A stretch of 64,000 bases of DNA from Amphiscolops sp. MND2022. Taxonomy: Eukaryota. Positions 1 to 60,305 of the stretch are shown here, one piece after another (within the stretch, counting starts at the first letter, position 1; every line of letters begins with the position of its first letter). The stretch lies in the NCBI GenBank assembly GCA_964187785.1, contig OZ076409.1, forward strand, positions 24,058,001-24,122,000. The letters are read 5' to 3'. Below the pieces are notes generated by a model that saw only the letters and a program-made list of their open reading frames with translations, was not told the origin of the DNA and made no database searches. A program made the position numbers and the translations under genes.

Positions 1-1
1 T

Positions 2-6833: not shown

Positions 6834-6963
6834 ATTTTAAATAGTCAAATACCATTATGTCGACATCGTTGCGTTGAAATTTTAGTCCAATAAAATTATT
6901 GATGTCGACATAATCATATCTTTTACATTGATTGACAGTTAAAATCAATCATTATTCTTTGAA

Positions 6964-27097: not shown

Positions 27098-27328
27098 AAA
27101 CTATTTATTTCACACTTGTTTCTTCGTTGTTTTAACTTTGATTGAGTATTTACAGTATCATTAGAAAGTGCAAAGCACTAACATTTGTGTTGGGATTTTG
27201 CTATAATTGTTGTTCTTTTATTTTTGTACTTTGTGCTAAGGTTATTAGAGATTTTCTGAATTGAACATTTAGTTGGAGTTTTCGTGTGCCATAAGGTGGG
27301 AGTTAATTCGTAGGCAGGCTGATTAGGG

Positions 27329-28225
27329 AGATGAGAGGGCGGTGGAAAATTTCCATCGTTACTTCATCTGTAATTGCGTTTGTGTGTAAATTAGTATGAA
27401 TCCTTTGGATGATGAGTAAACGATAAAACATTCTCATCGTTTTCCCATCGCGGGGCTCAGTTGCATGTATTCGAAGTGTAGGTTACGAGACTTAGGTAGT
27501 TTTCATGTTAGGTTGTTATCAGTGATTAAGTGATGGGGAAACTCCATCTGTTATACATCGTGACTGTTGTTGTACTCGCGTGCGTGAAATTACATGTATC
27601 TTTGGATTGCATGAATAGTCTGAGTTTCATGTTAACCTTTCAAAGCGATTTGCACGCGATGAAGTATTTTCATCGTGTAGGCATCGATATAGAGGCTTAA
27701 GTGGGTTTTGGCGTTGAGATATAAAAGGTGAGTGGAAGAGTGGAGTATATCCATCATTCCATCATCGTTGGCTAAGAGTTGGTTCATTTGAGGTAGAAAT
27801 TCTAAAAGCGATGATTAACCGATGAAATTGTAGAGAGAAGGGAGGTGTAGAAGAGATGGAGAAATTCCATCTCTTTACATCGTGCTGTTATAAGTTTGTA
27901 GTCAAATGCGGTGGTTTGTCTAATTTCCATCTAGCAGTTGGTAATTAAATTTTTCATCAACTGAGCGTCGTTAATCAGATGTTGACACGAGGCAAAGCCT
28001 ACGGATAATCAACAGACAGGTCATGGAAACTCAGATTGTTTTTGTGGCATGGTCAGAGAGAAGGTTGGGATGAGAAAACGATGGATGTGAACCATCGTTA
28101 AACTCATTCGAATTTTATGTGTTTCTGGAAGCGATGTGCTGCCGATGGAAATGTTCCATCGGTTTTACATCGTTTCTGGTAATTTCACTTTTTCTTCACG
28201 ATGGGGTGTTATTTAACCATCGTTT
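27329..28225. promoter_or_regulatory. Array of phased palindromic CGATG/CATCG motifs in the element A spacer
   Basis: Example 28132-28172: CGATG-tgctgc-CGATG-gaaatgttc-CATCG-gtttta-CATCG; similar units start at 27329, 27410, 27646 and 28068. Regulatory function is inferred. Confidence 0.55.
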
Positions 28226-28266
28226 TGAAATGTGAGATTGTCGTTTACATGTTTTTCGGTTGTTTT

Positions 28267-31200
28267 CTACTGTAAAGTAGTGTTTGTTTTGCGTAGAGCG
28301 TTTCGAGCAGTTGAGATTTCATGAATTAGGAAGTCTGAGTAGCGTTTCGGCTGAGGGGTTTCGCGTAGACTATATTTGCTTTTATTTGTCCTCGTTGCTA
28401 TCAGATTTGGCGTTTCGTCATCGTTCACCTGTCGGGGTGTCTCGGTGTTGGCAGGTTTTGTTGATGGTTCTGTTTGTTTCGCTGTATCTGGAATGATTTC
28501 CTGTGGACTTATATCATCATTTTCGTTGAATTGCACCTGTGGGGCGTTTCGAGGCAGGTCGTCTATGATTATTTCCGGTTGTGGTGTTAACGACAGTCGG
28601 TTCGGTAGTCGGTTCAGTGGTCTGTCGTGTTTGATTGCCTGTCGATAATCTGGTGATTTGATTCGATTGACTCTTTCAACTGGTGTTTCTTCATCAGTTT
28701 CTGGTTCGTCCGAGTTGGAGTTTATGTTTGTTTGTGTGGGAATGTGGGAATCGAAAATATCAGAATCTTCCGTTCGGTCCGTGTCAGCGTATACTGGTTG
28801 GTTGCTGATTTCTACGTCTTCTACAGGGTATTCCGGTTTGAAGATTTTCAGTCGTATACGATGAACGCATTGTCTTTTGAACGTTCCTACCTTTCGTATG
28901 ATGTAATTACTGTCGGACAGCACTTTCATCACTTTGAACGGACGTTTCCAGTGGAAGGTCTTGAACTCTTCTTTGCAACCCTGAGAGTCGTATTTGGGGT
29001 CAAGTAGGAAAACAAGGTCGTTCACTTTGAGCGGTTGTGCTTTGGGGTTTCTGTCATAATAAGCTTTGTACTTGTGGTATGCAGCTACTATGTTGTCTGT
29101 GTTATTTCGGTAGATTTCGTTCATGCGGTTTAGGATCTGGTTGACGTCTCCAAACTTGGTGTCGACTCGTCTTTCAGGGTTGGAGTATTTTAGGTCCAAA
29201 GCGTTGTATGGAGTGCGTCCGTGAAAGATTTCAGTTGGTGAACATTTCAGAGAAGTGTGGTACGTTGTGTTATGGGCCATGATTGCTATGTCGACATAGC
29301 AATCCCATTGTGGTCTGTATACATTTACATGTCTTTTTAGGATCTTTTTAAGTTTTGCATGACTTCTCTCAACCATGCCTATGGTTTGTGCATGTTTTAC
29401 AGTTGCATGGGAGATTTCAATGCCTATGGCTTTGGTCAGTTGTTGGAATAGTTCGGCGGTGAACACGGATCCTTTGTCAGTCAGGATATGCGTTGGGACG
29501 TACGCGTGTTTGGCGAATCCCGACAGTAAAGCTTTAACTACGGATGGTGTATCGGGTTTTCGTAGCGGTACAGCAAACAAATAACGCGAGAATACGTCGA
29601 TTGCGGTCAGGATATGTGTGAATCCGTTTGATGCAGGCAGTGGTCCGACTATGTCAACTTCCATCAGATCAGAAGGGCCGTTACACGGGTCGTAAATTTT
29701 CTGTAACGGTGGACGGATCTTTGGTTCGTTGGTCGATTTCGATCGCATGCATGTTTCACAGCTTTCGAGTATTTTTTCAGCAAGACTTGGAGAGTAGTAG
29801 CGTTTGCGTAGTTCATGTAACTTCTTTTTAGAGCTGGGGTGTCCATGTACAGGGTTACTGTGTAAGGACCTTATTATTTCTAGCATGACTTGATCAGGTA
29901 CGACGATTTGTTTATGGGACTCAAGGCCAGTATGGTCATAAAAGATACGGTACAGAACTCCGTTTACATTTTCAAGGCGTTTTCGGTTTTTGTGGAGTTT
30001 TTGGAAAAACGTTGACATCAAGTTCACAGAGTGGGTTAGAATTGTTTCGCCAGACAAAATTTTTAACATGAGTTGAATGTCACTATCTGTTTTTTGGGTT
30101 AAAATTAGATCGACTCCCCCTTGGGGCTAACCTTTTTCGTTACCGGGTGTAGTAACGATGTTTTTACGATGAATCTAGTGTACTCTGGTAGGTGAGCGTC
30201 AGTCATTAGCTGGTAGATCTGAGGGGAGCTTGTGTGATCATTCTCAGAGGCCAGTGGTGTGGAGTGTACGTAGTTCATCGTCTTGTCATCGTCACCGTCT
30301 GTCGTCGCTGCGTCAACTGAATTCATCAGTTTGCCATCATCGATCGTCACTGTCTCAGAGTTGATCACTTTCATCGGTTTAGCATCGTGTGACCTCTTCT
30401 GTCTCAGTGTTTCGCTAGGAGGGAAGTAGTCTGGTTCGTCTTCCTCCTGTTTTGGCGTCTTCGAGGCGATTTCAATTTCTATGTGGTGTACTGGAATGGA
30501 ATCAGTTAATTTTAGATGAACACGTTCTTCAGGTCGAATTTCCAACCTGGAAAGGTAATCCGCTGCGGGATTCTCTACACCTGGTACATGTGCTAAAATA
30601 AAATTAAACTGAAGCGTCTGGTCGCAAAAAATCTAGAGTGACGGTGGTATGTGTTTGGCCTGAAAGAAACGGGTGAGTGCTTTATTGTCTGTCATTACAA
30701 TTATAGGTTTCTTTGCACCCCACAAAATGTGACCGAACTCGTCGAACGCGAAGTGCATGGCTAAAAATTCTTTAGCGTACATTGTTAATGACATCTGTCC
30801 ACCCTGAAATTTCTTAGAGCCAAAAGCAACTGGTGCGTACTTCTTCAAGCTACCCGATTGTGTTTCAGAGTAGTCTTCTGTTAAAAGAACATAACCTGCT
30901 GCGTGTTCACTCGCGTCACACATGATTATTAATTGTTTATCCGGAAGGGGAAGTTTCAATGACAGTTTAGTAGCCTTGAGTAAACTTTCGTTAATGTCAA
31001 AAATTACATCTTTGTCAACATACTGGGCACAGCGGTCCGCTTTGACCAAGGGGTCCAAGTACTCGCGGACTACGCTGATGAAGGCTGAAAGAGAACGGTT
31101 AAGACCTTGAGCTACTCTAAGAAAAGCAAAGGTACGGGATCCAAAGTTAAAAGACAAAAGTTGGATTGACTGCTCATCGGCCATAGGAATGCAATGGTAG

Positions 31201-33069
31201 GCCTGGGAACAATCAAGTTTACAGAAATATTTTTCCCGGCCATGTGTTGAGCAGCGTCTGAAACAGTTGCAACTGGGTGGTTATGTTCGCCGTAATCGTT
31301 CTTGATCAGGTGGTTGATTCTCCGCAAGTCAACTAAAATCCTTAGTTTACCATTCGGTTTGCGCTGAGCAAATATCGGTGAAGAGTATTTGCTGTAAGGA
31401 AGGGTAGTTATAATCCCGTACTCCTGCATTAACGCTAATTCTACAAGCAAGTCATCTTTTAGGTTAGTAGGGGTAGGGAGACTTTGGGAGTACACCGGTT
31501 CTTCATGCTGGGGTGTTAATTTTACTTTAAAATCAGTGTTCATGCCGATGTCTAAATGATGTCTAGCAAAAATGGAGTTGTACTTTACCAGCAACTCCTC
31601 TACCTGAGCTTGTTGAGACGGACAGAGAAGTGATTCCTCCCACTTGAAGTTTTGCAGGAACTTGACTCGTTCTTCATGGAAGTGGGTAGGATCGAGCTTC
31701 TCCAGTTCTCTGAGGGCCAGAATCTCATCGAAAATGCGTCGTTCGATCTTGTTGAGTTTGTCTGGCTCACTACACGTCTTTGGTGTCGGGTACCATTTTG
31801 TAGACTTCATCTCGGGGTTCACAAAGAGTTGATTGATCACTGCTGCTGCATCGTCGGGGTGATCGGTGATCAACTTCAGGTGTTCGACTGGCATCGGTGT
31901 GATGTTGGCGGCTTGGTGGGGCGTTGGTATTCTAAAGTTTGCTAGGTTGGTGTTGGCTTCGAGTGTGTACACGTGCTCATTGGGGTTGGTGACCTGAATC
32001 ATCGTTTTGCCATCGTCTAGGTCAACCACTGCTGGAGACACCAAGAGACACGTCTTGCGCATGAATACTGGAGTCCCTTCTACCGTGCCGGTTGTACGTG
32101 ATATGTCCGCGTCACTGTGGACCTCAATCAGTACTTGATGGTGGGGAGGGATGGTGGTTCGGCTGCTGGAATACAAATTAATTAATCCAGTTTTGAACTT
32201 TTCATTCGTCTGTTGTCTCACTTGCATTGACATCATGTGGTTTGGAAAGTGGACTAAATGATTTTTGATGTCAAGGTTGACCGAATATTTTTCAAAGAAC
32301 GACATTCCAATCAGGATTGTTCCCATTGTTGGGAGGACTAAAAAGACTTCTTCAAATACTTTTCTTGCTATAAAAAAGCGTAGAAGGACTTGGTTTCGAA
32401 TGGGGACCAAGCTTCCGTTAGCTATCTGAACTTTGAAGTTAGGGGGTGGTAATTCGTCTAGTACTGCTTCGGGATGAGCAGCAGTGATTTTGCGTAATTC
32501 TGCTTCCGAAAGTGCGCTTTGCACTGCTCCTGTGTCTAAAAGACCTTGGTTTTCGTAGCTGTTAAACTGGAGGGGAACAAACAACATCTTATCCTTTTTA
32601 TTTATATGTAATGTGGGACTAAGTACGTGAAAAGGATTATTGGTTGCATGTTTTTTAGTTTTGGTACTACTACTTTTGTCGTTTCCATGTGTTTTACTAC
32701 TAAGCCGTTTTGTCGATTTGTCATCGGTTGAGAGTCGGTTCGTCGGTTGTAGATGTGAGTACATCTCTTTGGCATCGTGCGCAGGCCTCAATGCGTCGTT
32801 ATGCCAGTTCATCGTTTGCTCATCGAGTGAATTTTCCAATGGAGTGAATTTAATTTGTTGGTAGTCCGCATTGGCTTCATCGGTTGTTCATCGGTTTTCT
32901 GGTTTCTTCGCAGATAGACTTTGTCTGCTTTGCTGGAATCACCAGAGGGCTGCCAAGACCTCTGGTGACGATTGCGTTGAGTTTGTTGAGTCGAGTGAGT
33001 TTTGGAGTCAGAGTGTGGTTGCGCACTTCGATTGTTCGCGGAGTGAAATTGTGGCTTTACTGAAAATCC
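28267..33069 (-). pseudogene. pol: pol of element A (protease, RT with deletion, RNase H, integrase)
   Basis: LLDTGA, YSSPIF..LRILVDLRRIN, MCDASEHA, integrase H..GH..C..C, DIVGPL, TDKGS, VERSH. Frameshifts and stops near 32850, 31225, 30633, 30105; RT deleted after YVD. Confidence 0.93.
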
Positions 33070-34540
33070 TGTTCTCCTTCTGAGGATGGATCTTCATCGT
33101 TGTATTGTATTTCTGTTTGGTTCATGGGGCGCTGTTGTTGTTTTAATTCTCGTCGTCGTTCTTTGTTCTCTTGTTCATCTGTTCGTTGATATGGTAGTTG
33201 TCCGTAGGGTGTGCTCGTTTGCTTTGGGATTCTTTTTCTGCAGTCCCTGGCTGAGTGGCCAGTATACCCGCAAATCTGGCATACCAGTTTTGGGTTGTAT
33301 TTTGGCTTATCTTCATCTTGCCGTTTGGTAGGTTGTATGGCGTCTGGTTTGTTAATGCCATTAGCTTCATCTCTTTGGCGTCCTCTGCATTCTTGTTTCC
33401 TGTGGCCTTGTTTACCACAGTAGAAGCATTTTCCATCGAACCGTTTGATGTCTGGATTGGGCTGAGATTGGTCGGAGCGTGTGAATTCTCGTTTAGGGTT
33501 ATCAGACATTTGGTTAAATGGCTGATATGTCGCTGCAGGTTGTTGTAGGACGTTCTGATATTGGTATTTTCTGAGTAGGTAGTTTTTGATTTCTTCGGGG
33601 CTGCTGTCTTCCTTGTTCGCCATTGTCAGCTCTTGTTGGATTTCGATTGGTAATTTCCCGAAGAGGAACATTTTGATGCATTTGTCAGCCTCGTCGCAGT
33701 ATGCTTGCTTGGCTATTTTCTTGAGGTTTTTTAGAAAATCTCCGAATGTCTGGGTGGTCGGGTCGTATTTGGCTTCATTCCATTTGTAGCGGGCGACTTC
33801 TCTCATATCTTCTTTTGCGAACTCTTTTCTGAATAGTTGCAGGACGTCCTGTAGAGTGGTGGTTGGGTTGATGGTGATGGTTCGCCAAAAGTCAATGGCT
33901 CCATGCGGAGTAAGCTCTGGAAGAAGTGTATTTTATCTTCCTCTGTGATCTTGTTGGCGATGGGTCGGAAATGGTTAAGTAAGAGGTGCTCGAATTCGTT
34001 GTATTTGTCTTTAGAGCCTCGGAAATTGGGAACGTGGGTTTGCAGGAGTTTCGTGTTTGTTTTCTGCAATTTCCTTGGTAGATCTTGGATGGCGTTGAGT
34101 AATGCGGTCTCTGTTGAGTTGCTTGGTGTGTCTTCGTAATCTTCTTCATCTTCTTCGTCATGGAAATAGTTGCGTTGGTTTCTGTGAGTCCTGTTGACTC
34201 CTGTCACCATGTTGGACGCCCGTACCGCGAACGAGGACGTTGCGGCATTGGTATCCGTTTGTCTATTTCTCTCCTCGTTTTGTTCTAGCAACTTTTCCAT
34301 CATAGCTTTCAGCATAGACATTTCTGATTGTAGGTGGCTAAATCTTTCATCATTTGCCCTCTGTAAATCTATCTCTGGACCTGATGAACTTTGTCTTGAT
34401 TGGGTTTGATTATCTACATTTTCGTTGTCATTTTCCATGTTGACGATTTGCTCCTCGTGAGTAAGTTCTGTTGAATCTGCTGAAAGAGTGCCAGTTAACG
34501 TTTTCCCGTTTCTCAAGGTTATTTGGGAATTAGAACTCAT
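33057..34540 (-). pseudogene. gag: gag of element A (one frameshift ~33900)
   Basis: ORFs 33803-34540 and 33057-33806; two CCHC knuckles, CFYCGKQGHRKQEC and CQICGYTGHSARDC. Confidence 0.9.
34197..34209 (-). other. Primer binding site of element A
   Basis: TGGTGACAGGAGT directly after the 5' LTR; identical in B; resembles the complement of a tRNA-Leu 3' end (tRNA identity tentative). Confidence 0.8.
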
Positions 34541-35983
34541 ACGATGAGAAAGAGATGATTGTTGTGGATAAGAGTTGAATTGTTGTAAGTTCGAGTAAGG
34601 TACGTATAAAGGGTAAGTAAATACAAGTACTTTTACAATGTAGCGTTAGTAAATCTTGTGTTGTCTCTCCGGTAGCCTTCCACCAGTTCGATGGTAAGAC
34701 TCAATTCTTACCATCGTTTCGTTCTTATTGGTTAGTTAGCAAGGTGCTAATTAGCACTTGGTCACTAAACCGGTTGTATCGCATGTCGCTGGAGGGCTAC
34801 CAAGCTGAAATTGCGCGCTGAATCTATTTGAACCAATTACTATGAATATTTAATGCATTCAAATTAGTAACTTGTAGTAAGCATCGTCTGAGTCACGGCA
34901 AGTGTCGAAATCACATCAAAATGGGGTACAATCCAGCTGTGGGCGGTTAAATCAACTTTAAACAAGTATGATGTAAAAACGATGAATCAATAGCGCTAAT
35001 TTAACTGGAGATACGGGATTCAGTAGTTTTGTCGTTTTGGCATCGTTTCTACTAGTTGATTCTGTTTATGTGGCTGTGGATGCAGGAATGATGAATGAGC
35101 TTTGTTCTAGTGTTAAAACGATCAACTAGATGTGAAAACGATGAAATGAGTAGTGGGGAGAGCACTGTGCATCGTTCAGGAGTGGTTACATCGCTTTACC
35201 ATCGTTATTGGTGAATTTTGATTATAGATGAGAAAACGATGAAAGATTTCCATCGCTTTTCCATCGTTCCTGATTTTGGCACTGTTTTCAGGTCTTGGAA
35301 GCGTGATTCAGCTCTAGATGAGAAAACGATGAAAGATTTCCATCGTTTATCCATCGTTAGCTATTTTAGCACCGTTTTCAGGTTTTGGAGGCGTGAGCGA
35401 TGTACAAATGATGAAACATATGGTAACAAGTATTCAATCAAGTAGTTTCATCGCTTTTACATCGTGTTTCAATTCTCTCGTTTTCTAGCGTTCTGGTCAC
35501 AGTTAGGCGATGTAATATGGATGAAATTTGTTAGATTGAGTCAAATTATGAGTTCTAGCACCAATAACATCGTTATTTCATCGTTTCGTGTATTTCAAAG
35601 AGAGGAGGCTTGCCACGCTAGTTTCCTCTGAGGCGGGAATTCCCTAGCGAGTGTTCAATCTCGTCTATTTGTCATGGCGGTCCAGTTTGACCGAGAAACT
35701 ACTTTCTTTCCTCGTGACAAGCCATTAAATGTAGAATAGCATCATTTGCTTATTAGCACAATCACTAATTGCGGACAAACGGAACTAGAATGCTCAGTAT
35801 TAATTAAATAAATAGCTCAAATCTCACTGGTGAAAATAGGGGGTTAAGTACAAGTAACGTAGGGTTGCTCACAACCATGGACCTTATTATATGACATCAT
35901 ATTGCCCATATCTAAGTACATAAGACATAATATTTACATTACAGATATTTAGTAGATTATATTTTCATCATGCTGGCATGACA
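34210..35983 (-). repeat. 5' LTR of element A
   Basis: Direct repeat of 20490-22272; minus strand reads TGTCATGCC...GTCCAACA, then the PBS. Confidence 0.95.
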
Positions 35984-40625: not shown

Positions 40626-41707
40626 TGTCATGCCCGCCAAGCATGAAGGAATTAAACGAACTCTAAAACATTAATTTATACATCAAACTCCCTAAAATAC
40701 AGATCATCATGAAAATACATTGCAGTAATTTATTCCCCGAACAATACAGTTGAGAGTATAACCACTGGAACTAACAGTCATCAATACTAAATTCATTCAT
40801 ATTATTGTGCATCGTTTAGAAACCAAGACTGAAACAATCAGTCATCAGCTATCGTGATAGTTTGTGATTTAATCATTCTTCATCCATTTTTTATATTACA
40901 TGTAAAGTATTACCAGAATATTCAATCATTCATAACAACTACATTTCGTTCATTCATATTAGCAATTTGTACAATGCCTTTTAGTAATTATCCTCCAAAC
41001 GATAATTGAATCAGTCACCATGATGATAAGAACACGCGGTAGTAAAGCCTCAGTTTAAGAGGCAATTGAGACAATTGCGTGCTAAAATGACTGGTGCTTG
41101 CGGTCATACTGGATCAAACATGAATAATTAAACGCCGATTATCACCCGTCACGACTGTAGCCACCAGTCGTCAAGTGCAATTAAACAGCAATTAGTAAAT
41201 CGAATGTCATTGGCTAAAAGGAAAGGTGCTAACACACCTTTATAGTTACACAATCGGGTAAAACCGAACTCACTCACAAGTTGTAACCATTGATATAACC
41301 AGTTGCCTACTACCTTGCTTACGAGTTGTCAATCCTTATTTTAACATTAAAACATTTCAATTCAACTTAAACTTCCAGACTTTTCATGGTAATTACCAGA
41401 TCTCAAAGTAGTCAAAATAGACAAGTAGAAACTGAAAATATGGATAGATCAAGCGATAACGAAAGTGAAGCCAGTTTCCCTGAACTTTTATCCAGAGACC
41501 AAATGGTAGACCTTGACTCTGACGACGTTTTAACTAGACGTCAAAACAGTAACAGTTATAACATTGACCAGCGATTTAATGAGATAAATAGACAAATCGG
41601 AGACCTTACCAATATAGTCCTTACACTGACCAATCAGTTTGCCTCCGTTAATGGAGAAGGGAACAGACTGAATCCAGCAACTACAAGTACTGACGGTCGT
41701 TCCGACA
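40626..41707 (+). repeat. 5' LTR of element B
   Basis: TGTCATGCCC...TTCCGACA; about 5 substitutions seen by eye against 54449-55530. Confidence 0.97.
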
Positions 41708-42920
41708 TGGTGACAGGAGTCTCCAACCCACGACCATCAGGATCTCGAACAACACCACCCAACGGGACACCAAGGAGTGACGAAAGTATTCCGCAGATAG
41801 CAGATGTGATGACGGAAATCCACCATCTCCGCAGTACAATGGGGGAAATCTTGACCCATCCAAAAATCCTGCAGACCCAGTACCTCTATTCAAGGGAAAT
41901 CGAGACAAATACAATGAATTCGAGCATTTATTGCTCAACCACTTACGACCACATGCCCACAAACTAACCGAAGAACAAAAACTCAACTACTTTCAGAGTC
42001 TTCTCAGAGATGACGCAATTGAGTTTTGGCAAACCCTAACAATCACGACAGAAACGACACTGAGAGATATACTGACGGCATTCAAAAAAGAATACGCAAA
42101 GGAAGAACTCTCAGAAGTCTCGAAGTTCAAATTCGACCAGCTACGATACGATCCGGCCACTGAGTCATTCAGTACCTTCCTCGCCAATTACAAAAAGATT
42201 GCCAAACAAGCCTACGGTGAAAAGGCACAGGAAATTGTCCAGACCTTCCTATTTGCCAAATTACCGATCCAGCTCCAAAACGAACTAGCAATTGCAGGAA
42301 AACACAATGCCAGCATTGAAGACATCAAAACATTCGTCCAGAGAAGATGTCAATATGCCCAGTTACTTCCAAACCAACAACTCCTCCAACCGTTCAACCA
42401 AGCTATCCAGACACAAGAAGTCCCAAACAAGCCAGTTGTTCAGAAGAGGAACGAAAACGAACGACCAACAATCAAAAAGAAATTCGATGGCAACTGCAGA
42501 TACTGCGCAATTTACGGACACAAATGGGCTGAGTGCCGAAAACGACTGCGTGACGAAGCAGCGGGCAACAACAACTCACAACCTCAGAAAAAGCCCGAAC
42601 AGCAAAATAACAACGCAGAAAGACAACCAAAATACAATGTCAAACTGGTCTGCCAAATTTGCGGATATACAGGTCACTCCGCAAAAGACTGCCGTTACAG
42701 AATACCCCAAACCTCCGCCTACGGAAGCGTGCCATACAATAGGCAAACCACAAATGAAAACAGGGACTTCCAACGCGACTTCCGAAGAGCACACAACTAC
42801 CCTTACCCAGCAAATGAAATGAACGAACTTGCACCAGGGGACCAACAACAGCAAACCAGTGATGACTACTACCAACAGGAATTCACCGAAGGATCATCCA
42901 GCCAGCCAAAAAACTTCTGA
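41386..42920 (+). pseudogene. gag: gag of element B (one frameshift ~41880)
   Basis: ORFs 41386-41967 and 41931-42920; knuckles CRYCAIYGHKWAEC and CQICGYTGHSAKDC; clearly homologous to gag of A. Confidence 0.9.
41708..41720 (+). other. Primer binding site of element B
   Basis: TGGTGACAGGAGT immediately after the LTR-terminal CA. Confidence 0.85.
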
Positions 42921-45900
42921 AGCCACGTCATCCGACTGACTATTACAATAACAAAGTGCGCAACATGAACAACTACTACTACACAAAGAACTACAAAAAC
43001 CGGGCAACTGATCTTCGGCAGGATCAGAAACCTAAGACTACAACTACCCACGAAACAACCAATGACAAAGTGAACCCTCCCTCCGAACCAACGGACGTGA
43101 ACTTACAAACGACAGAAGACAAACAGCACTCTAACTCGACTACAACGACTGACTGTACAAGGAAAACAATGAACCGAAAGAAAGACGTGGCGATCCAGGT
43201 GTTAACAGCAACACTCCAATTAAACAAAAAGGACAAGATGTTGTACGTCCCATTGCAATTCCGAGAATACGAGAACCACGGACTCCTCGACACAGGAGCA
43301 ATAAGAAGTGCAATGTCAGAAGACGAACTCAGACGAATCCTGTCTGCACACCCAGCCGCACTTCTCGAAGAGTACCCAGCACCGGACTTCAAAGTCCAAA
43401 TCGCAAACGGAAGCATCGTCCCGGTCCGGAAACAGGTACTACTTCGCTTCTTCATCGGAGGTAAAGTATTCGAGGAAACCTTCATGATTCTTCCAACCAT
43501 GGGTAACATCTTGATCGGAATGTCATTTTTCAAAAAGTATTCAGTAACACTTGACCTTGCCAACAACGTAGTCAAGTTCCCGGATATTACCCTGCAACTG
43601 AAACCAGAACGAGGACGATACAAAATCCAGATGATCGAATTACGAACGACACAGAAAACAGTCATACAACCGGACCACCAAATCATTGTCCCCGTCCTAG
43701 CAGAAAGGGACCTCGGGACAATCCAGGGCACAGTGGAAACCTTTCCTGCCTTTGAAAGGAAGACACAATTACTGGTGTCCCCCGCCCTAACGCAAATCAC
43801 TGAGAAGAAAAGCCATGTCCAGATCACCAACCTCACTTGCCATACAATTACCCTCAACCCGAACACGACAGTGGCCACCTTCAAAATAATGACTCCCAAT
43901 CAAGCAAAAAACCTACAACCAATGCCAAACGAACAATTGACACTAATAACCAAATACCCGGACGAAGCCACCAACGTACTAAACCAACTGTTCCAGGAAC
44001 CCGGCACTGAAACCAACCGCAGATGGTACCCAATCCCGGAGGCATGTGACGACCCGTCCAAGCTGAACCGCATTGAAAGGCGGATATATGACGAAATCAC
44101 TCAACTCCGTGAAGAAGAGAAACTGGACCCAACAGCAGACGACCAACAACGCAAGGAGTTCCTTGCTAACTTCAAATGGGAGAACTCAATCCTGAATGAA
44201 CACGAACAACAACAAATTGAGAACTTCCTTGTGAAGTACAACAATGTATTCGCCAGACACCGCCTCGACATAGGCATCAATACTGACTTCAAAATCAAAC
44301 TCACTCCGAAGCATGATGAACCAGTCTACGCGCAGAGCTTACCTACACCCACCAACCTCAAAGATGACCTGCTCGTCGAACTAGCGCTGATGCAAGAGTA
44401 CGGGATCATCACGACGTTGCCGTACAGCAAGTATTCCTCACCAATATTTGCCCAGCGCAAACCCAATGGGAAACTTCGCATTCTTGTAGACCTGCGCAGA
44501 ATCAACCACCTCTTGAAAAATGATTACAACCAACATAATCATCAAGTCACCACCATCGCCGACGCCGCCCAGCACAGGCAGGGAAGAAGTACTTCGGCAA
44601 GCTGGACTGCTCGCAGGCGTACCACTGTTTGCAGATGGCGGATGAACAATCCATACAACTCTTGGCATTTAATTTTGGAAGTCGAACCTTTGCTTATCTA
44701 CGACTGGCACAAGGACTCAACCGATCCCTATCAGCATTCAACAGCACGGTGCGAGAATACGTTGATGCACTGGTGAAAGCGGATAAATGTGCCCAATATG
44801 TCGACGACATTGGGATTGCTGCCCACACTGTAGATGAGCTACTGTCAAACATTGAAGCTGTGTTCCAACAAATCCAAAAAGCAGGACTGAAATTGTCGAT
44901 GTCAAAATGTGCGTTTGGCCACCCACAGATCGACTTCCTCGGGAGAAGCATCACATCAAAGGGTGTCGCCCCACTCGAAGACAAGATCGACGACTTCCTC
45001 AAGAAGATCAAATTGTCCACATCAATCAAATCCCTCCAAAGGTACATCGGGTTTGTCCAGTTCTACAGGCAGTACATACCACGCCTAGCAGAAAAACTCA
45101 CCCCACTGTACAAACTACTCCAAAAAGACGTCAAATTCCAGTTGACCCAGCAGCACAAGGACATCATCTTCGAGATTAATGAAAATCTTGCCAAAGCTGC
45201 GAAACTTTCGCTGCGTCTGCCGTTACCTGATAAACAGCTTGTTATAATGTGCGACGCCAGCGAGCATGCGGCAGGATATGTCCTCCTGATAGAAGACTAT
45301 ACCGAAACAAACGATGGACCACTGAAAACGTACGCCCCAGTATCATTTGGATCCCAACGATTCACGGAGGGCCAAATGTCCCTAACAATGTACGCAAAGG
45401 AATTCCTGGCGATGCATTTCGCATTCGATGAATTCGCACACATACTCTGGGGTGTCAAGAAACCAACAATAGTAATGACGGACAATAAAGCACTGACCCG
45501 ATTTTTTCAGTCTAAACGGATTCCCCCGAAGCTATGGAATTACTGCGATCAGACGCTCCAATTCGAATTCGTACTTGCCCACGTTCCTGGAACTGAGAAC
45601 CCTGCTGCAGACTACCTGTCTCGTCTTGACATACGACCAGAGGAAAGAATACACCTCAAACTCAACGACGAGATACCAGTCTTCCACGTCGAGATCGACC
45701 TGGCATCGAGAACACCCAAGCAGGACGAAGAAGAAGAAGAATACTTACCTGATGACCAACACACTACCACCACCAAACAAAATGAAGCCATCAACGCCAT
45801 CCTGGACCAGGTCCCCATGTGCAGCAACGAATCGAGTGGACAGTTTCTCGAGAGGATAGAAACCATCCGTCATCAAATCACACCCATCATCACAGGGCAA

Positions 45901-47712
45901 CATGACGAGATGACGTTCACCAGATTCAGACGAAAGCTTCATGACAACGTGGTAAACCAGGTATGCCCCAATGGGGAGTTTCAAATCATCCAGGATCAAG
46001 TCGTACACCTTGACATCCAACGCATGATTAGAATTTTGAACCAAAAGGAAACCCTTCCTAATCATGTGAACTTTGAAAGTCTGTTTTTCCAAAAACTAGT
46101 TAAAAACAAGAAAAGACTTGAAGTAGTGAACAACGTTTTGTACAGGAATTTTTTTGATGGTACAGGTAAAATCAAGTGTAAACAAGTTGTCACTCCCCCT
46201 GAAACCATCCGGAAAATCATTCAATCCCTGCACGATGACCCTCTGCAAGGTCACCATGGCTGTAACAAAATGCTCCATGAACTGCGTAAAAGGTACTACT
46301 CACCAAACCTCTCTGAACTGGTACTGCAATACGTCTCGAACTGCCAGGACTGCATCCGCGCAAAACCAATCCGAAAAGCTGCAATCACACCACCACTTCA
46401 ACAATTATACGACCCCTGCAACGGACCAGAAGACATACTAGAAATCGATTTAGTCGGTGAACTCCCACCTTCCAACGGATTCACACACATCCTCACTGCA
46501 TGCGACTACTTTTCTAGGTACCTCTTCGCAATACCAATCCGTAAACCGGACACAAAGTCGGTCGTAGAAGCACTCATGCAAATCTTCACGCAGCACTCGT
46601 ATGTACCCAAAACAATCTTAACTGACAAGGGAACGACATTCACATCTCAACTACTCAACGCCCTGATGGAGTCTGCCGGTATAAAAATCGAACACGCTTC
46701 TGTAAAGCACGCACAAACGATCGGGATGGTTGAACGTTCACATCAAAAACTGAAACAAATTCTCAAAATCAACATCTCAGCTGATTCACCACAATGGCAC
46801 AAATACGTCAACATGGCCGTAATGGCCCATAACACAACCTACCACCAGGCTATCCGATGCACACCCACTGAAGTTTTCCACGGACGTGTTCCGTTCAATG
46901 CCCTTGACGTCAAATTTGGCCATCCCTTAACCGAACAACGTAACACCACTGACGTCACTGGAATACTAGATAACATGAACAAAAAATTCCAACAAACACA
47001 TGACAACATAATCGAAGCCTTTCACAAATACAAGAATTACTACGACCGAAAAGCGCAAGCTTCACCTCTGAAAGTAAATGATTTCACCTTTCTGCTAAAC
47101 AAAAGACTGTCTCAGCAATCTGAAAAAATTCCTTTCAAGGAATTCAAGTGGGAAGGCCCATACAAAGTGGTCAAAGTCTTGTCAAATTCAAATTACTTCA
47201 TACGTAAGATTGGCACTCTTCGCACCCAATGCGTTCACAGAATGAGGCTTCGCCCATTCACGCCAAACGCACCAATCGAAGACATTCAAGACAATGCATC
47301 ACAATATTTCGAAGATCCTGACGCCCTCAACGAGCAGGAGTTATTTGACAATAACCTACCTGATCATGTCCATGAATAGCCACAACAAGTAATACCTGAA
47401 CAATCAAACTTCGAAGAGTTACACGCAGACCATGGAATGATCTACTACGAACGGCAAAACATAGAACCTGATCAAAACATCTCCATACCTGAAAGCCAGG
47501 CTGAAACACAAGAACCACAACCGGATAATGCTAGCATGAACAATTCTGAACACCAAACAAATGATCGCCCTCCAGCGCCATCACGACACACCATGTCTCG
47601 ATACGGGCTCAGACACAACCCAAAACCTACCACGTACCCTGATTTCTTAATGCACGAATTACATGGTACGCCTTCACTGCAACAGTTACTTCTGAAAAAC
47701 AGAAACCTGTAA
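42908..47712 (+). pseudogene. pol: pol of element B (PR-RT-RH-IN)
   Basis: LLDTGA, YVDD, MCDASEHA, integrase HHCC and D-D-E motifs. Frameshift ~44575; stop at 47377 followed by an in-frame continuation to 47712 that resembles the C-terminus of A. Confidence 0.95.
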
Positions 47713-49454
47713 AACACCCATCCCTCATTGCATTTCTCAAACAAACGACTGCTAACAGCAGTCATAAACAGTCTCGCTCCTTGACCGTAAAAGTAATTGT
47801 TTTACAATTACGACGCTGTATACCAGTACTCAACAAGCAGTATTGAAAATTCCGGACAACCTAGCACACAATCCAATTTATACGATTAAATGACCATCCA
47901 CTTCCGTCGTCACTGTTTGAGCTGTCTAATTACTTAGCGTCAACTACTACGTAAGAAGCAAACAAACGGTAACGCAACGACTGCAAACGCCAATCATCCC
48001 AACACTTGCGGCCCAGAAGCACACGTAGCACGCAAAAATGTGAACGATAATTTATTCAATTCGCACCAAAACTACCACGTCAACAAACGAAACGAAACAC
48101 TTCGCTTAGAAAACCGTCGAAACACAACTAACGAAACGTGAACGAAAACAACGTTCCCTACAAGCGCAACAAACTAACAGTGACGATCTGCTGCCTGGAA
48201 AACGTTAAGACAACACAACCAAAACTCCACCCATTTCGACTTAAACCCATAGTGCTGGCTGTGTGGGTGCGTCGTCGAAAAGCGCGCTTGTGTGGTTGGT
48301 CGTCACCATACAGATGAAGGTTGCTCTTTAGCAACTGGATTCAGTGTTAGTTTTGCATAGGTGGTTCCGACGGGAATTCACCTTTTCCAATGAACTGAAC
48401 ACCAAAAATAACAAAACAACCATAGACGATAACACAACGCCGGTAAAGAACAAGAGCTTGCCAAATTCAGAAAACAATGAATACCCGACCCCTTAAAAGT
48501 AACCAGATATGCGAAGGCTTCGCCTCGCTCGGGAAAAGATTCAGGAGTGCGCGGCCCCAACCTCTGCTTAGTATTAAAATCTACACACACCCATAGTTCT
48601 CAGTCTAACAACTTCCTACCACCGAAGTTAACATAATGTAAGAACTCGCGATCTTGACGACACACATCACGTATGATGACGTCCCAGGACACACATCAAC
48701 GATGATGACGTCGCGTACACAGACCGCTACATGTAATATATTGAAACACACTAAAATACATGTAAAATAGTCCCTAAAAATTATAACATGAATATTACAT
48801 ACACACAAAAGAAGTCATGCATCAAACCAAGGATACACTCCTTGAGCCTCCCGTCATCGTAATGAACAAGCTGCTCAGTCACGTACCTTACAGTGCGGCG
48901 CTAAGGACTGGAAGGCCATGGTCTGAATGTCTCGTTACCATTCTCGAGCCTTCACTAACAACTTACATGAAAACCTGGCTCTCGAGTACCATGCACAGCA
49001 CAGTTTGACGCGTAAAAAAATGTTTATGCTAATGGTTACCACAGTGACAACCATAACCAACATGAACTTCCTCAATAAATTCCTTGAACACGCCGTAACA
49101 ATTAAAGCGTAAGTCCACTCGAAACCATAGCGAAGTATGGGTTACCCCATTCACACACTTAAGAAAGACAAAGCCAGTCCAGCATCATGCATAAATGTAC
49201 ATACAAGCAAAACAAGTGAAAAACCTCTTGTGACGTCCGAACTGTCCAGTCCTAAGGAAAAACAAAGAAGAGTACTATGACGGTTGCAACCATCTAATTA
49301 AATCACTAGAAAGTGCAAGACCTACTAAGGCCAAAACAAAAAAAATTGCAGCATATAAAGCAAATCACAATATCAGGACTCAATAAATACACAAAAAGCT
49401 GAATACACAAAGAAATATGGAAAGTCTGATTACTAATACAAGTCCTTCTGCCAA

Positions 49455-52400
49455 CTAATACTCTGTAGAACGGCTGGAGCCGCCCTCGTTACTGCTTTCT
49501 TCGAGTGAAAAAGCCCGCCTGCTGGCTTGTACAATTTCAGTCTCAAAGGTAGCCAGAGTGCGCTTCCCTTTCTTGTCCGGCTTCCCAGCGGTCCTCTGTC
49601 CGTGATTGCCCCCTGACGTCCTACTGACTGCTTTGCGCTTCGGAGCTGACTCACTCGGACCTGCTGACGACACTACGACCTCGGATTGCAATTTCGGCGC
49701 TTGAGCTGCTGAACGCCTTGATTTGACAGGACTCCGACGGGGAGCAGTTGGACTCGACTCCATTGTCCGCAACTGATTACAAACAGCAGACACATAATCG
49801 TCAATGACAGGGCGAGTAGGTAGTCCACCAGTCGTCTCCAGTACTGTGACACAGCGCCCAAGCGATTCATCAACCCCCCTCTTAACCAATTGGTCCCAGG
49901 GGATAGCTCTGCCTTCATCGGTTAACCGCGAAACCTGCATGTCTGTAGTGCTGCAGTGTCTAACAAATCCAATCATCGAGCGTCGAGAATGCCCGCCGAA
50001 ACCACTCGACATCCAGCTTCGAATAATGTTCAAACTTGACAGCATGATACCGTCATCGAGGGCTGTGTCTCCTACATCCTGAAAATCAGCAGCATACGAA
50101 TCATGGAGCATTCCCACAAAAAGAATCTCCACAATGCCCCGGAATTCTTGGCACCGGTCCCACGAAGGATATGACAGCCACAAAGACATGGCATCGTCAA
50201 TAACTGGCACCACCGAAGCATTGGACTCCCATCGATGCTTGAAGTAGTTGACTACCTCGCGATACTGCTGCAAGATGATGGCACCTTGATCTCCTCTGCA
50301 TAGATCTCCAAAGCTGAGGACAGAAAGTGTACCCACAAGGATGTCTGTCAGCCGATCCATTGACACCGACTGTATAGCATAAGGATCCAGCGGCAACAAG
50401 CTGAGGTGCTTAACCCACCCTTGGTCATAATCGCCAATGCACGAATCGCACACAGTCCTGAGGAAATTCTGCACTTCTTTATAAAAGAAAGGCTTCTGGC
50501 TGACCACGTCGAAGTGGAAGTACTGGCCGAACAGCACTTGAAATCGGGCCTTGTCAACAGGCTTACTCTCGCCCAGTCGCAACTTCAACACGGCGAGGAC
50601 TTCAAAATCAGGTGGTAGCGATGAGGGTTCGACGACCAGAGACAATAACTACCGAAGGAAAGCAGCCAGCTCCCGCTCGAACCATAAGTTCCGATCTCGC
50701 CCAGCAGAACACAAGCGAGGACACTTTGCAACAACTGAAACACACAGGCGAATCACAACCAAAATGTTGAAAAACTACACACCGTAGCAACTCAGACGTC
50801 GATAACACCCAAATCCACAATTACAACAAAACTAGTACCGACACACCCGTACACAAGTAACACTCAAAACTCTTATACTGACCTGTCTCTGCCAGAAATT
50901 TCAAAACTGCAAATCGCGGCCTCGACAAAGCATCGTTGAAGACTTGACTTTCCATACTGGCTATACTCCGCGTTTCGGACACAGTATTTGACCGGTGAAC
51001 ACCGAAGTAGGCACCGAGGTCATCCCATCGCTCCACAAGTTCGGTGCACAGTGCCGACAACTCCTGGAAGCGCGCAGCACCACCACGGACGAACTAAAAC
51101 AAAATTAGCACCGAGTTAGAACGAAGCCACGACCACACATTACCACACATACTAACACCAGTCCCCGAAAAAAAAGAAAAAAAATGCGCTAACAAACTTA
51201 AAATCAATTACCTCTCGAAGCCTTGGCATATTGTCAAACGACGAACCCACCGATGACGGCGGCTAAACGGAACCGGAAATACTCCAACACGCAGAAGGGT
51301 TCCAGTCCACTCAAATCTCGCAGAAACGTGCGCCGCAGCAAATCCTTCAGCCAGTCCACATCGAGACGACGGGTAACCAAAGGTATGGCTGGGTGCGCGA
51401 TGCTAGCTAAAGCACGCCCAAGACGCAGATTCTCTCCCACACTCACAGCACACAGACCCGCATGAGACTCCACACAGGCCAGAACAGAGACAACGATCTT
51501 GAGTAGTGAGCGTTCCCACTCACCACCACCAGGAATAGCAGCTAGCACAACCATCTTGACTGTCAGAGCGTCAAAAATGTGGCAATCCACCCGCTTCAAC
51601 GACCCATCAGTGCGGACGTGCAGACCAAACCGCGCCCCAGCAGAGAGTAGATCGCTCAGTTTCTCCATGACAATTGGATACAGGCCGTATAACACAAGAC
51701 TCTACAACAAACATACAACAGTGACACTTCTCAGCAAGTACTGCCAACAAAAACAGTAAGCAACTGCAAACACGAACTAGCAGACAAGAACCAACATTCA
51801 CGAACAAAACATGTATTACCTGACATTTCGGGTACGATAGCACCCTCTCACTGAAAACCAGCTCGCCCCGCATGCTACTGGACCACACTTCCATGGACCG
51901 CACAACGCTCGAAAAGTCCCTCAGTTCAACAAAGTTATTGATGAAGCAGCATAGCCAGAGGTATGAAGAACTGGACTCCGACAACTCGGGTTTCGAACCA
52001 GCTGCCTCCTCTTCTAATTCAACCGCAATCCGCTCTTCAACAGTCAGCTTCACCTCTGACTCCAGAATGACAGGTGGCTCTGACACTCTGGCTGCCCGAA
52101 TTCTCCGATCCTCGTCCAATGACACGGGCCTACAGGACTTGTCCAATAGAGGCCTATTAGACATGATTCAGAAGCGCTGCTCAAGACGAGTGTGCTCTCG
52201 CCCTTTCCAATGATCCCACAAGTTGTGTAGACCACGTCCGGCAATGCTTAAATCAACGCGGCACAGACACCTTGCGAACCCGTCCACCACACGTTTGTTT
52301 CAGGGGAAACCAACGAAGGTCCCCACGACCCCAGAAACGACGAATGAGGGTTTCAACGTTTTGATAGCACGTTTCCGTCCTGCTAACACACAACACAAAT

Positions 52401-53629
52401 CACATAGCACCATTGTCCAGCCAAAACCTTCCAAAAACAAAAAAAAACGTGTTTGTCCTTAATCAGTAGTAGTACGTTATATACACCTCTTATTTCTTTG
52501 TTTACCACCTAAAACTAAAACCCCTCACGTGATCTTTTGAGAGTTCTTACCAGGCTTTGATGTGGAGGCAACAGCGGACGAAGTCCCCCCAGAAGGAACG
52601 ACGCTCTTTTCTCCAAACTCAGACGGCACATCAGATTCCACTGCCGCACGACGATCGTCCACACCAGAGATGCTCCCAGCTACGGAGCGTGGTAGAGAAG
52701 AAGTCTCACCACCACGGGGAACGAGAGGAGCTTGACCCAGTTCTCGCAACACTTCCTTCATTTTGTCCAGGAATTCCTCGACAGCGAGAGCACCCACTGT
52801 CCCTAGCCGGCCCAAACTAGACTCGATTGCAGCCTTCACCCACTGCTGAATTTCCCGTTCTACACGTTGAAACACTTCAGTGAACTGCCCCACAATGACA
52901 TCAGCTCGAATGGCATCTGCAAAGTAACCCTTAGTTCATAGCACCTACTTTGGACTCAACGACTGAAGGCATCTATCACCGCCTGGTTAGAGAACAGCAA
53001 CCGTATACTGCATGCATTGGTATTGAACAACAAAAGAACCAAAAGACCCCCCCAGCAGATAACTTAACTTCACAGTAACCGTGAATTCACCTACCAAGTT
53101 GCGATGTCAGAAAGGCATCCAGTCGACGAAGGATGGGCGCAGCCTCCGTCTCAGAACCCTCAGCAGTTCCAGTGGCTATCGAAGCACGAAAGCGACGTAA
53201 ATAACTGACCACGTCGGACATGTTGACATCAGCTACAAACACGAGAACACTCTATTTAAAATGCTACGCCTGACACTCCCTAACATTACGGGACTCAAAC
53301 TTGAAAGTATGCAAACTTGAAGGAAAGACTTAACTCTCCCTTACGCTTTAGACATACCACTGATAGTAGTACAATATACGAAGTGAGCACTTACCAAATT
53401 CCTGGGAGAGAACGACATCCAATAAATCGCTTAAACCAGCGATATTAGCAGAAGATACCCGAGCCGCAAACTGACAGCAGTAACTAGTCTCCAGCAATAA
53501 TCCTGATAACTACAGATCGCCTCCACTTCCACCTAGCTGAGCCCCCTCTCCGGCCATCTGATTCTCCACTTCAGCGACTAACTCAGCTAATCCGGGACCA
53601 AAGGACTGACCTGCCTCATCATCAGACAT
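49455..53629 (-). pseudogene. Spliced antisense accessory gene of element B; Zn-finger, hAT-transposase-like, this copy disrupted
   Basis: Exons (-): 53629-~53514 (join uncertain), 53470-53395, 53232-53095, 52916-52551, 52379-51820, 51701-51212, 51093-50883, 50734-49455; GT-AG and phase-compatible. Stops at 52300, 52168, 50649; frameshift ~51245. Confidence 0.82.
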
Positions 53630-54431
53630 ATTGGATAACGCTGGGAGAAAAGGAAATAACTGAAACTCTCCGGGGAAATAATAATCGGCGACGAAGACAC
53701 GACTGCCAAAGCTCATTCTTCCGTTTATTGTTGTTATAGACTGATCACCTATTCCAATATACAATGGATACCTGATCTCCTCATCAAACAGTTTTACTCT
53801 AGTAATACTGGACATTCAAGGAACCATATTTTTGGACCTACTTCCACCAGACATCAAATGCTAATTACAAGAAGCAGAAAGAAAGCAGTCGTATTTCCCA
53901 GCCAAAAAAGACTAATTCCCCGAACAATCTTATCAGTACAAGCGATACCCGAAAAACACAGGACTAACAGTGCAAAAAACAAAACATGGACATATTTTCA
54001 TCATTGTGGAAGAATGAGCAAAAGGTTGACAAACGGAGGTGAATACTCTCAAATTAAAGCGGGATCAAATTTCAATTCAAACAGTAATTGACTCGACTGA
54101 CTTTCACTATGGCAACACAACAAATCAATCAACTGCCGATGATCGATGAAAAGTTGCTTAAACAAACATCACACTCAATGCGCACTACACGGATGACGTG
54201 GCTGTCAAACCGTTTCTATAAATAGACTTCAACTTCCGACTACCTACTATTTGCCTGCCTCACCTTGTCCATTCACGCTTCCGAATGTTTCCAGAAGCTA
54301 CATTGCCACCCACGCGTTTCTCTATACCTTGCATGCCACTTCAGCCGCTGTTCAAAACTCCACTCAGATATCTGCTACCTCTCAACTCGACCGTTCACCT
54401 TACCCATTACCCCTACAGCCTGCTCTCTCTC

Positions 54432-54448
54432 AAAAAGGGGGGGGGGAA
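54432..54448 (+). other. Polypurine tract of element B
   Basis: A5-G10-AA directly before the TG of the 3' LTR. Confidence 0.9.
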
Positions 54449-55530
54449 TGTCATGCCCGCCAAGCATGAAGGACTTAAACGAACTCTAAAACATTAATTT
54501 ATACATCAAACTCCCTAAAATACAGATCATCATGAAAATACATTGCAGTAATTTATTCCCCGAACAATACAGTTGAGAGTATAACGACTGGAACTAACAG
54601 TCATCAATACTAAATTCATTCATATTATTGTGCATCGTTTAGAAACCAAGACTGAAACAATCAGTCTTCAGCTATCGTGATAGTTTGTGATTTAATCATT
54701 CTTCATCCATTTTTTATATTACATGTAAAGTATTACCAGAATATTCAATCATTCATAACAACTACATTTCGTTCATTCATATTAGCAATTTGTACAATGC
54801 CTTTTAGTAATTATCCTCCAAACAATAATTGAATCAGTCACCATGATGATAAGAACACGAGGTAGTAAAGCCTCAGTTTAAGAGGCAATTGAGACAATTG
54901 CGTGCTAAAATGACTGGTGCTTGCGGTCATACTGGATCAAACATGAATAATTAAACGCCGATTATCACCCGTCACGACTGTAGCCACCAGTCGTCAAGTG
55001 CAATTAAACAGCAATTAGTAAATCGAATGTCATTGGCTAAAAGGAAAGGTGCTAACACACCTTTATAGTTACACAATCGGGTAAAACCGAACTCACTCAC
55101 AAGTTGTAACCATTGATATAACCAGTTGCCTACTACCTTGCTTACGAGTTGTCAATCCTTATTTTAACATTAAAACATTTCAATTCAACTTAAACTTCCA
55201 GACTTTTCATGGTAATTACCAGATCTCAAAGTAGTCAAAATAGACAAGTAGAAACTGAAAATATGGATAGATCAAGCGATAACGAAAGTGAAGCCAGTTT
55301 CCCTGAACTTTTATCCAGAGACCAAATGGTAGACCTTGACTCTGACGACGTTTTAACTAGACGTCAAAACAGTAACAGTTATAACATTGACCAGCGATTT
55401 AATGAGATAAATAGACAAATCGGAGACCTTACCAATATAGTCCTTACACTGACCAATCAGTTTGCCTCCGTTAATGGAGAAGGGAACAGACTGAATCCAG
55501 CAACTACAAGTACTGACGGTCGTTCCGACA
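54449..55530 (+). repeat. 3' LTR of element B
   Basis: Direct repeat of 40626-41707, followed by the TSD CGACC. Confidence 0.97.
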
Positions 55531-55535
55531 CGACC

Positions 55536-60155: not shown

Positions 60156-60305
60156 TATTTTCCGCCATATTATTTTCCGCCATATTATTTTCCACCATAG
60201 TATTTTCCGCCATAGTATTTTCCGCCATATTATTTTCCGCCATATTATTTTCCGCCATATTATTTTCCGCCATATTATTTTCCGCCATATTATTTTCCGC
60301 CACAT
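60156..60305. repeat. 15-bp minisatellite (TATTTTCCGCCATAT) x10
   Basis: Directly visible tandem array. Confidence 0.95.

Follow-up and report, generated by a model that had tools for sequence, protein, structure and literature searches.

The 64,000-nucleotide stretch of Amphiscolops sp. MND2022 DNA analysed here (contig OZ076409.1, positions 24,058,001 to 24,122,000; hereafter the window) contains two Ty3/gypsy long terminal repeat (LTR) retrotransposons in opposite orientation, A on the minus and B on the plus strand, and both carry an antisense gene between pol and the 3' LTR. This antisense gene is a real gene under purifying selection, and its product is, with little doubt on profile and fold comparison, a dead hAT-like transposase by origin. 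The co-variation of its zinc finger with short palindromes of the element suggests that it probably binds the palindromes belonging to its lineage, much as subterminal repeats are bound by BED domains. Whether it serves as a self-encoded, sequence-specific regulator of the element's own LTR, with a positive effect on transcription, is a reading for which we see about an even chance.

The antisense gene of B consists of 7 exons and about 1,090 codons, and its introns are bounded by GT..AG in 6 of 6 cases (Table 1). Pfam matches to gag, protease, reverse transcriptase, RNase H and rve (integrase) were obtained in A and B, both of which also show TG..CA ends, 5-bp target duplications, a common start of the primer-binding site and a polypurine tract. 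The original prediction, made from the letters of the window, was thus right to regard the gene as captured by an LTR element, and the peptides that it quoted are present in the order given (B, minus strand, 53629-49455; A, plus strand, ~23700-27097). From pol to the antisense gene of B there is no sense frame of 120 amino acids or more. In the 1.07 Gb host genome, matches to the antisense exons of B and A numbered at least 150, at least 142 and at least 151, ranged from 30% to 100% identity and included groups of identical copies; they fall into several deep lineages, distant relatives having led to further ones. Sixty-two ten-kb loci (L-numbers), picked for diversity, were taken from the genome. 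An integrase match lay within 10 kb of the antisense gene in 55 of them, and it was antiparallel to that gene in nearly all rows inspected, L143 being an exception. The junctions of exons 4-7 fall at homologous places in the 21 copies compared, 2 of which miss the AG before exon 5. Over exons 4-7 the ratio of nonsynonymous to synonymous substitution rates (dN/dS) was 0.03-0.13 between subfamilies in 7 of 13 pairs, dS being saturated in the other 6, and 0.10-0.36 within subfamilies (3 pairs); dN was lowest or joint-lowest for the finger exon in most pairs. We therefore consider the gene real on the grounds of its GT..AG introns, shared junctions and low dN/dS, and it is presumably expressed.

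A nested hAT insertion or a host gene fragment, carried along as a passenger useless to the element, would fit the broken state of both window copies (4 in-frame stops and 1 frameshift in B; A is also disrupted) and the 7 of 62 loci that have no integrase within 10 kb. However, the selection signal largely refutes this explanation, since dN/dS stays at 0.03-0.13 across lineages that are only ~15-25% identical in protein; moreover, splice sites are conserved and the deep clades of the antisense tree are congruent with those of the integrase tree. We give a mere passenger almost no credence.

Table 1. Coordinates in the window of the two Ty3/gypsy elements, their antisense genes and the candidate target palindromes
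Feature	Position	Strand	Remarks
Element A, Ty3/gypsy	20490..35983	-	LTRs 20490-22272 and 34210-35983, 97% alike; 5-bp target duplication
A 3' LTR palindromes CGATG-N9-CATCG	21526..21634	.	at 21526 and 21616; in 5' LTR at 35237 and 35327
A antisense gene	23709..27097	+	predicted exons 23709-24097, 24366-24928 (finger), 25104-25589 (RNase H-like), 25703-25907, 26147-27097
A spacer palindromes	27340..28161	.	27657, 28079, 28143 exact; 27340, 27421 one mismatch
Element B, Ty3/gypsy	40626..55530	+	LTR pair 99.5% alike; 5-bp target duplication; no env-like frame
B 5' LTR	40626..41707	+	GACTG-N7-CAGTC at 40827, 41153; one-mismatch sites at 40763, 41089
B gag and pol	41371..47379	+	gag, CCHC, protease, reverse transcriptase, RNase H, integrase; several frames in window copy
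B spacer palindromes directly after pol	47747..47995	.	47747 exact, 47979 one mismatch
B antisense exon 7	49455..50734	-	helical, matches insertion domain and C-terminal part of transposase; tail basic, S/P-rich; stop at 50651 in window copy
B antisense exon 6	50883..51093	-	best placement in transposase RW-motif region; alone not significant
B antisense exon 5	51212..51701	-	RNase H-like core; catalytic Asp columns and CxxH apparently lost; frameshift ~51240 in window copy
B antisense exon 4	51820..52379	-	BED-like C2H2 finger and helical region; stops at 52302, 52170 in window copy
B antisense exon 3	52551..52916	-	helical, then low-complexity; unmatched to transposase tested
B antisense exon 2	53095..53232	-	
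B antisense exon 1	53395..53629	-	acidic, 15% D+E, 1% K+R; stop at 53512 in window copy
B 3' LTR	54449..55530	+	palindromes at 54586, 54650, 54976; one mismatch at 54912; all upstream of TATA-like TTTATAG at 55062

As to origin, direct searches with the antisense exons were unproductive, and natural members of the transposase clade named in the original prediction were therefore gathered into an alignment, A5. A motif pattern led to 4 genome places, and one intact-motif frame of 432 amino acids led to 386 relatives, of which 57 were aligned. We regard A5 as hAT-like because it aligns with the PF05699-bearing hATs of the host genome across D, D, CxxH and RW, all in register (220 columns, E 4.5e-5). 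PF27073 occurs as a precomputed annotation on one A5 member, and the label "ZNF862-like" for the donor clade comes from the original prediction and was confirmed by no comparison. The last exon matched A5 in hhalign with probability 94.8-95.2, E 3-5e-8 and a score of 68-74 over 262-266 columns, against at most 25 in 25 block-shuffled alignments each and 15-17 on reversal; the finger exon did so at E 2e-5 (score 45, against 18 or less in shuffled or reversed controls). For exon 5 the match was borderline when 29 rows were used (24.2 against 23.7); 43 rows gave a modest one over 88 columns (P 0.002; score 31.1, the best of 30 shuffles reaching 28.8). The best local placements are colinear on A5 (16-76, 186-281, 368-430 and 423-707), and the hidden Markov model (HMM) of A5 scored real above reversed sequences in 48/53, 35/35 and 36/43 cases. 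zf-BED matches in Pfam were weak (15 of 23 members, best E 0.0017), and the Atlas score, below 0.9 for the last exon, reached 0.90 between the finger exon and zf-BED clusters, which is a lead only. The hAT link runs through clade A5, because exon HMMs matched Ac-type hAT frames of the host genome with the finger only and hhalign to the Ac-type alignment A7 gave no match. Pfam returned nothing useful on the window antisense exons and last-exon members, a long-protein homologue search with the last exon retained 0 of 1663 candidates, and a PDB sequence search with A1, A4, P0221 and A5 brought up no hAT.

An AlphaFold model of exon 5, built from its own 43 relatives only, had a predicted local distance difference test (pLDDT) value of 79.8 and the strand-helix order of RNase H. 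Among the Foldseek rows listed, Hermes chains had the top query template modelling (TM) scores, 0.43-0.47 as opposed to at most 0.37 for others. A wide search with VIA placed Hermes at rank 27 (Z 6.1) with the longest alignment (127 residues), and a second comparison gave Hermes 4d1q a Z of 7.2 (root-mean-square deviation, rmsd, 4.8; 145/164 residues) and 6dww a Z of 7.1 (rmsd 3.2; 104 residues). Several results tell against this origin. Foldseek returned no match at E<=0.001 for the exon 5 model, and in VIA the Z of Hermes was level with, not above, that of Pelota and actin-like RNase H-like folds, although these cover only ~85 residues. Exon 6 and the second half of exon 4, a putative intertwined dimer region, did not beat shuffles, although their local placement was as expected; global-mode hhalign aligned exons 5 and 6 differently from local mode; and the last-exon model was poor (pLDDT 50), its fold search matching nothing. 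A homodimer prediction for exon 4 residues 125-190 gave no answer either way (score 0.14 against a mark of 0.32). On balance, the hAT ancestry that the original prediction had proposed is borne out by the profiles of finger and last exon and by the colinear fold comparison, while the profile and structure check suggested with it succeeded in part, namely in the A5 match and the Hermes TM-scores but not in a significant Foldseek match. As for the dimerisation-like C-terminal block, the last exon matches the C-terminal part of A5, and the Pfam hAT dimerisation model PF05699 matches neither the antisense exons nor any of the 10 A5 transposases scanned, their closest transposase relatives. A relic of a free A5-clade hAT-like element (L116:1030-2325, G000 C12), with D, D, CxxH and RW intact and cut before the Glu, has 34 related matches in the genome.

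hAT chemistry requires the DDE residues and CxxH, according to one study (PMC4763223). In A5 the residues D, D, C, H, R and W are invariant (57/57). In the alignment of 43 exon-5 sequences, the first Asp column has D in 2 and E in 9, the counts for the second are 6 D and 14 E, and no sequence is acidic at both columns (0 of 43); CxxH is absent from the matching zone in all 43. The Glu column is mostly lost, being kept in ~5 of 53 rows, which come from other lineages. The zinc ligands of the finger, in contrast, are conserved in 34, 35, 35 and 35 of 35 sequences. As aligned, the catalytic residues are lost and the finger ligands kept. The original prediction had named the second Asp, CxxH and the Glu as missing, which holds, the Glu column for the most part; it needs correction in that the first Asp appears to be lost too, the window copies having R in B and E in A, with the D of 'RTDG' two columns on. 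No intact DDE was found across the copies. In lineage B acidic residues lie 1-2 columns off, and a small register error is possible. The VIA register sets model residue 1 at Hermes 152; if the first Asp of Hermes is residue 180, as we take it to be, this offset agrees with the hhalign register.

Inverted 5-mer pairs were counted by spacer length without bias, shuffled controls giving at most 2 and a 20 kb flank 3. A single dominant palindrome emerged for each lineage: GACTG-N7-CAGTC in B, CGATG-N9-CATCG in A, GATGG-N6-CCATC in C and a weak GATG-N15-CATC in D. Of 22 B-type loci, 19 carry the B site, with 2-5 copies per locus; the three misses are rearranged and devoid of an LTR, and 2 of 40 other loci have a single copy each. 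The A site is present in 13 of 14 A-type loci, 4-10 times per locus, against a single occurrence in 1 of 48 others. The C site, seen only in the spacer, appears three times per locus in 8 of 10 C-type loci, and 4 of 52 others have it once. In 192 kb of unrelated loci none of these three sites was found. Genome-wide, the strict 23-bp B site was counted 238 times with N7 and 0 times with N6 or N8 (reversed-pattern controls 3, 1 and 6), and 15 different spacers are present among the 50 B sites listed, from copies that are related. Element B has four candidate sites per LTR, upstream of the TATA-like box (presumably acting as such), and two more after pol, and in element A the half-site density is 3.9-6.0 per kb in LTRs and spacer versus 0.3-0.6 in coding parts. 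The residues of the finger helix are nearly fixed within a lineage and different between lineages (RG[LM]HN, RG[LI]SS, RG[IL]ST, RGITT, RGLSK). Pairs of Hermes BED domains bind a quasi-palindrome cooperatively, as reported in PMC10368747. The fixed arms, free spacer and exact length are more in keeping with a dimeric DNA-binding protein than with an RNA hairpin, although the A sites permit G.U pairs.

Binding of the palindromes by the antisense protein is nevertheless weakened by several observations. The motifs were identified post hoc on the same loci; with only 3-5 related lineages, shared descent alone could give the co-variation of finger and site; the site of lineage D is a weak one, with 1-4 copies per locus as compared with 0-2 in other loci and 6 in background; and an A-type locus without pol (L153) has no A site. 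In addition, the LTR palindromes may be host-factor sites. Such sites usually accumulate in LTRs, and it is conceivable that the palindromes have nothing to do with the protein and serve host transcription factors or form RNA hairpins, the dead transposase having another task, e.g. as a decoy against host defence. On the sense RNA the asymmetric position of the A site is G.U in 6 of 6 cases, and a decoy would also explain long-lived alleles, whereas a regulator leaves the allele diversity of the cassette unexplained. However, the arms are fixed in sequence without compensatory change while spacers vary at an exact length, the B flanks on the sense RNA are more often A.C than G.U (13 versus 5 at the first flanking position), and each lineage has a different site inside one host genome, so that we regard unrelated sites as unlikely. 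Two further palindromes, GCAGT-N7 in L153 and TTACA-N7 in L152, were not counted as target sites, since they lie within simple tandem arrays of single loci. In L153, moreover, the finger exon is duplicated and the spacer is replaced by a 77-bp tandem array. In the spacer of L152 (6179-6390), which belongs to the most divergent lineage (helix RGLSK), a 48-bp tandem array carries in each unit a long palindrome with a 7-base centre; this is perhaps a target site in the tandem form known from the VANC system of Arabidopsis VANDAL elements.

The protein might instead act on the complementary DNA (cDNA), its scaffold binding both LTRs and pairing or protecting the ends, or carrying the pre-integration complex to the nucleus or to a chromatin target. 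Purifying selection on the whole transposase scaffold rather than on the finger alone would agree with this, as would the basic C-terminal tail of the B protein (19% K+R) and the pairing of ends through subterminal repeats described for hAT proteins in PMC10368747. Sites also cluster, however, in the internal spacer, far from the cDNA ends, and the C-lineage palindromes are found only there; target duplications are 5 bp long, against 8 bp for hAT elements (PMC4763223). A role on cDNA is therefore rather improbable in our view.

Returning to a regulator of transcription, we propose the following sequence of events. The ancestor of a Ty3/gypsy clade would have taken up a hAT-like transposase gene in antisense, and its introns would outlast reverse transcription because splicing of the sense genomic RNA does not remove them. 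The gene lost catalysis but kept its BED-like finger and whole scaffold, and it has extra acidic N-terminal exons, as profile, fold, residue counts and dN/dS show. As a dimer or higher oligomer, the protein would bind the fixed-spacer palindromes in U3 of the LTR and in the post-pol spacer of its own lineage. Bound there, it might license transcription of the element as an activator or as a displacer of silent chromatin; the position of the sites and the acidic N-terminus point to this step, which is the least certain. The original prediction of a trans-regulator may thus be correct, with indirect support from the lineage-specific palindromes in LTRs and spacer. Its analogy to VANC agrees with the family-specific motifs in the element's own non-coding DNA, but a literal anti-methylation role is weakened: the observed/expected ratio of CpG in the elements is 0.92-1.02, i.e. 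without depletion, and CpG transitions among 14 copy pairs run at 0.037 versus 0.025 elsewhere (~1.5-fold) and are equal in the LTR pair of A. These data show little methylation, so that anti-silencing would need another mark, which is a further difficulty for the reading as a positive regulator; a chromatin or direct activator role is more likely than a VANC-like removal of DNA methylation.

The same protein and sites could also work with the opposite sign, as an autorepressor that limits element transcription or copy number. The evidence on origin and sites fits this equally well, sites on both sides of the element could allow an oligomer to loop the LTR to the spacer, and antisense regulators of retroviruses are on record in PMC7264820 and PMC11963269. 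On the other hand, near-identical young copies in many subfamilies indicate that the carriers are active. Exon 1 is moreover acidic, and activation regions often are. We hold an autorepressor to be fairly unlikely.

Below the congruent deep clades, pol is homogeneous within a clade and the antisense cassette is not. In 30 loci, the cassettes are less than 80% identical in 39 of the 55 pairs whose integrase DNA agrees at 95% or more, whereas in every one of the 17 pairs whose cassettes agree at 88% or more the integrase does so at 90% or more; the sampling of loci favoured diverse cassettes, and the pairs are non-independent. L075 and L077 are 98% alike over 6 kb of gag-pol and 54-71% across the antisense gene, and L043 and L052 have fully identical integrase and 53-75% identity across that gene. 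Faster mutation of the cassette was rejected as the cause, since cassette and integrase identities track each other in the 17 close-cassette pairs. As judged from these alignments, the cassette is swapped among near-identical pol genes. Alleles within a clade would be interchangeable because they have the same finger helix and the same sites. It is possible, if tentative, that the gene acts as a private transcription factor whose finger-operator pair re-specifies between lineages, each switching on its own LTRs only, and that old interchangeable alleles are swapped among sweeping gag-pol backbones as retroviral env genes are. The swapping pattern points to an unrecognised selective pressure on the cassette.

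Compared with known systems, the antisense protein has the same succession of domains as the A5 clade (invariant FDE, SMDG, CGLH and RW; unnamed or "uncharacterized" in the sources) and Hermes, from a BED-like finger through an RNase H-like core, together with the helix before it, and a helical insertion to the C-terminal region. It differs from them in the apparent lack of catalytic residues and CxxH, in three extra N-terminal exons and six introns, and in its place inside an LTR element with a 5-bp duplication. The plant Ty3/gypsy elements Retand (TRP28), Grande (gene23) and RIRE2 likewise have an antisense gene between pol and the 3' LTR that is kept in most copies, and a nuclear or regulatory role has been proposed for these additional open reading frames (PMC7264820, PMC11963269). 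According to the former review, similarity to other elements does not argue for a nested-insertion origin of these frames, and neither where antisense accessory genes of LTR retrotransposons come from nor what they do has been settled (PMC7264820). Unlike these frames, which have no clear homologue, the present gene is split by introns, has a DDE transposase origin that appears traceable and comes with visible candidate target sites. VANC is similar in that an element encodes a protein and repeats family-specific short motifs in its own non-coding DNA (PMC5735166), a likeness that is clear for A, B and C and weak for D. VANC, however, removes DNA methylation in a DNA transposon, whereas elements with the antisense gene show little CpG decay, and their motifs are fixed-spacer palindromes rather than tandem arrays. 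Retroviral regulators such as HTLV HBZ/APH-2, encoded by the element, some of them antisense, act on its own LTR, and foamy virus Tas is another element-encoded LTR regulator; these proteins are unrelated to the antisense protein, which is a whole transposase scaffold in an element without an env-like frame. No retrotransposon with a domesticated hAT transposase was found in open-access literature text, Repbase and most subscription journals lying outside this scope. Since the origin can be traced to a class II transposase, one mobile element would here have domesticated the enzyme of another, likely target sites included. Short oligonucleotides and a finger of 60 residues make the function testable, and natural specificity swaps are available in the lineages for DNA reading by BED fingers.

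Some further observations concern the gene family. The last-exon profile found 238 clusters at E<=0.001 among 1.84 billion representatives; 41 relatives scanned showed no meaningful Pfam family, and ten clusters looked up were almost all unnamed ENA records. One of these ten, P0131, is at best 25% identical to anything scored in the host genome, and the family may therefore extend to another species; a metagenome pattern scan had 0 of 21 matches confirmed. Some subfamilies or copies have an intron that can be read through in frame, which produces long unspliced frames (L043:2691-4061, L147:6170-7345, L150:4142-5845, L111:2772-4406), a form common to many identical copies of the L043 subfamily. 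In P0026 (ENA contig, 2091 bases) the protein reads from exon 6-like straight into exon 7-like sequence with no intron between them, as expected of a spliced or intronless form. A further upstream exon of the A gene ends at 23639, outside the mapped exons. Three copies, L054, L055 and L056 (positions 1-10000, on three chromosomes; compare L157), are 98-99% alike over 9-10 kb and hold a 5'-truncated cassette and an LTR-like piece but no pol. They also contain, oriented the other way, an internally deleted cassette from a different subfamily, and the whole may be a mobile chimeric unit. In L142 an N gap separates two cassettes placed head to head, possibly an assembly artefact.

In the window itself, the gag frame of B begins within the LTR, crosses the primer-binding site and shifts frame at ~41781-41967 (41371-41967, 55194-55530). 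The repeat in which B sits is directly duplicated over 953 bp (55530-56482 and 56685-57637, 97%) and has a 213-bp piece in common with the left flank (40413-40625). Unrelated to the antisense gene are an inverted-repeat element with 162-bp arms 88% alike (6446-6842 and 16071-16232) and a 15-bp tandem repeat of ~10 copies (60155-60308).

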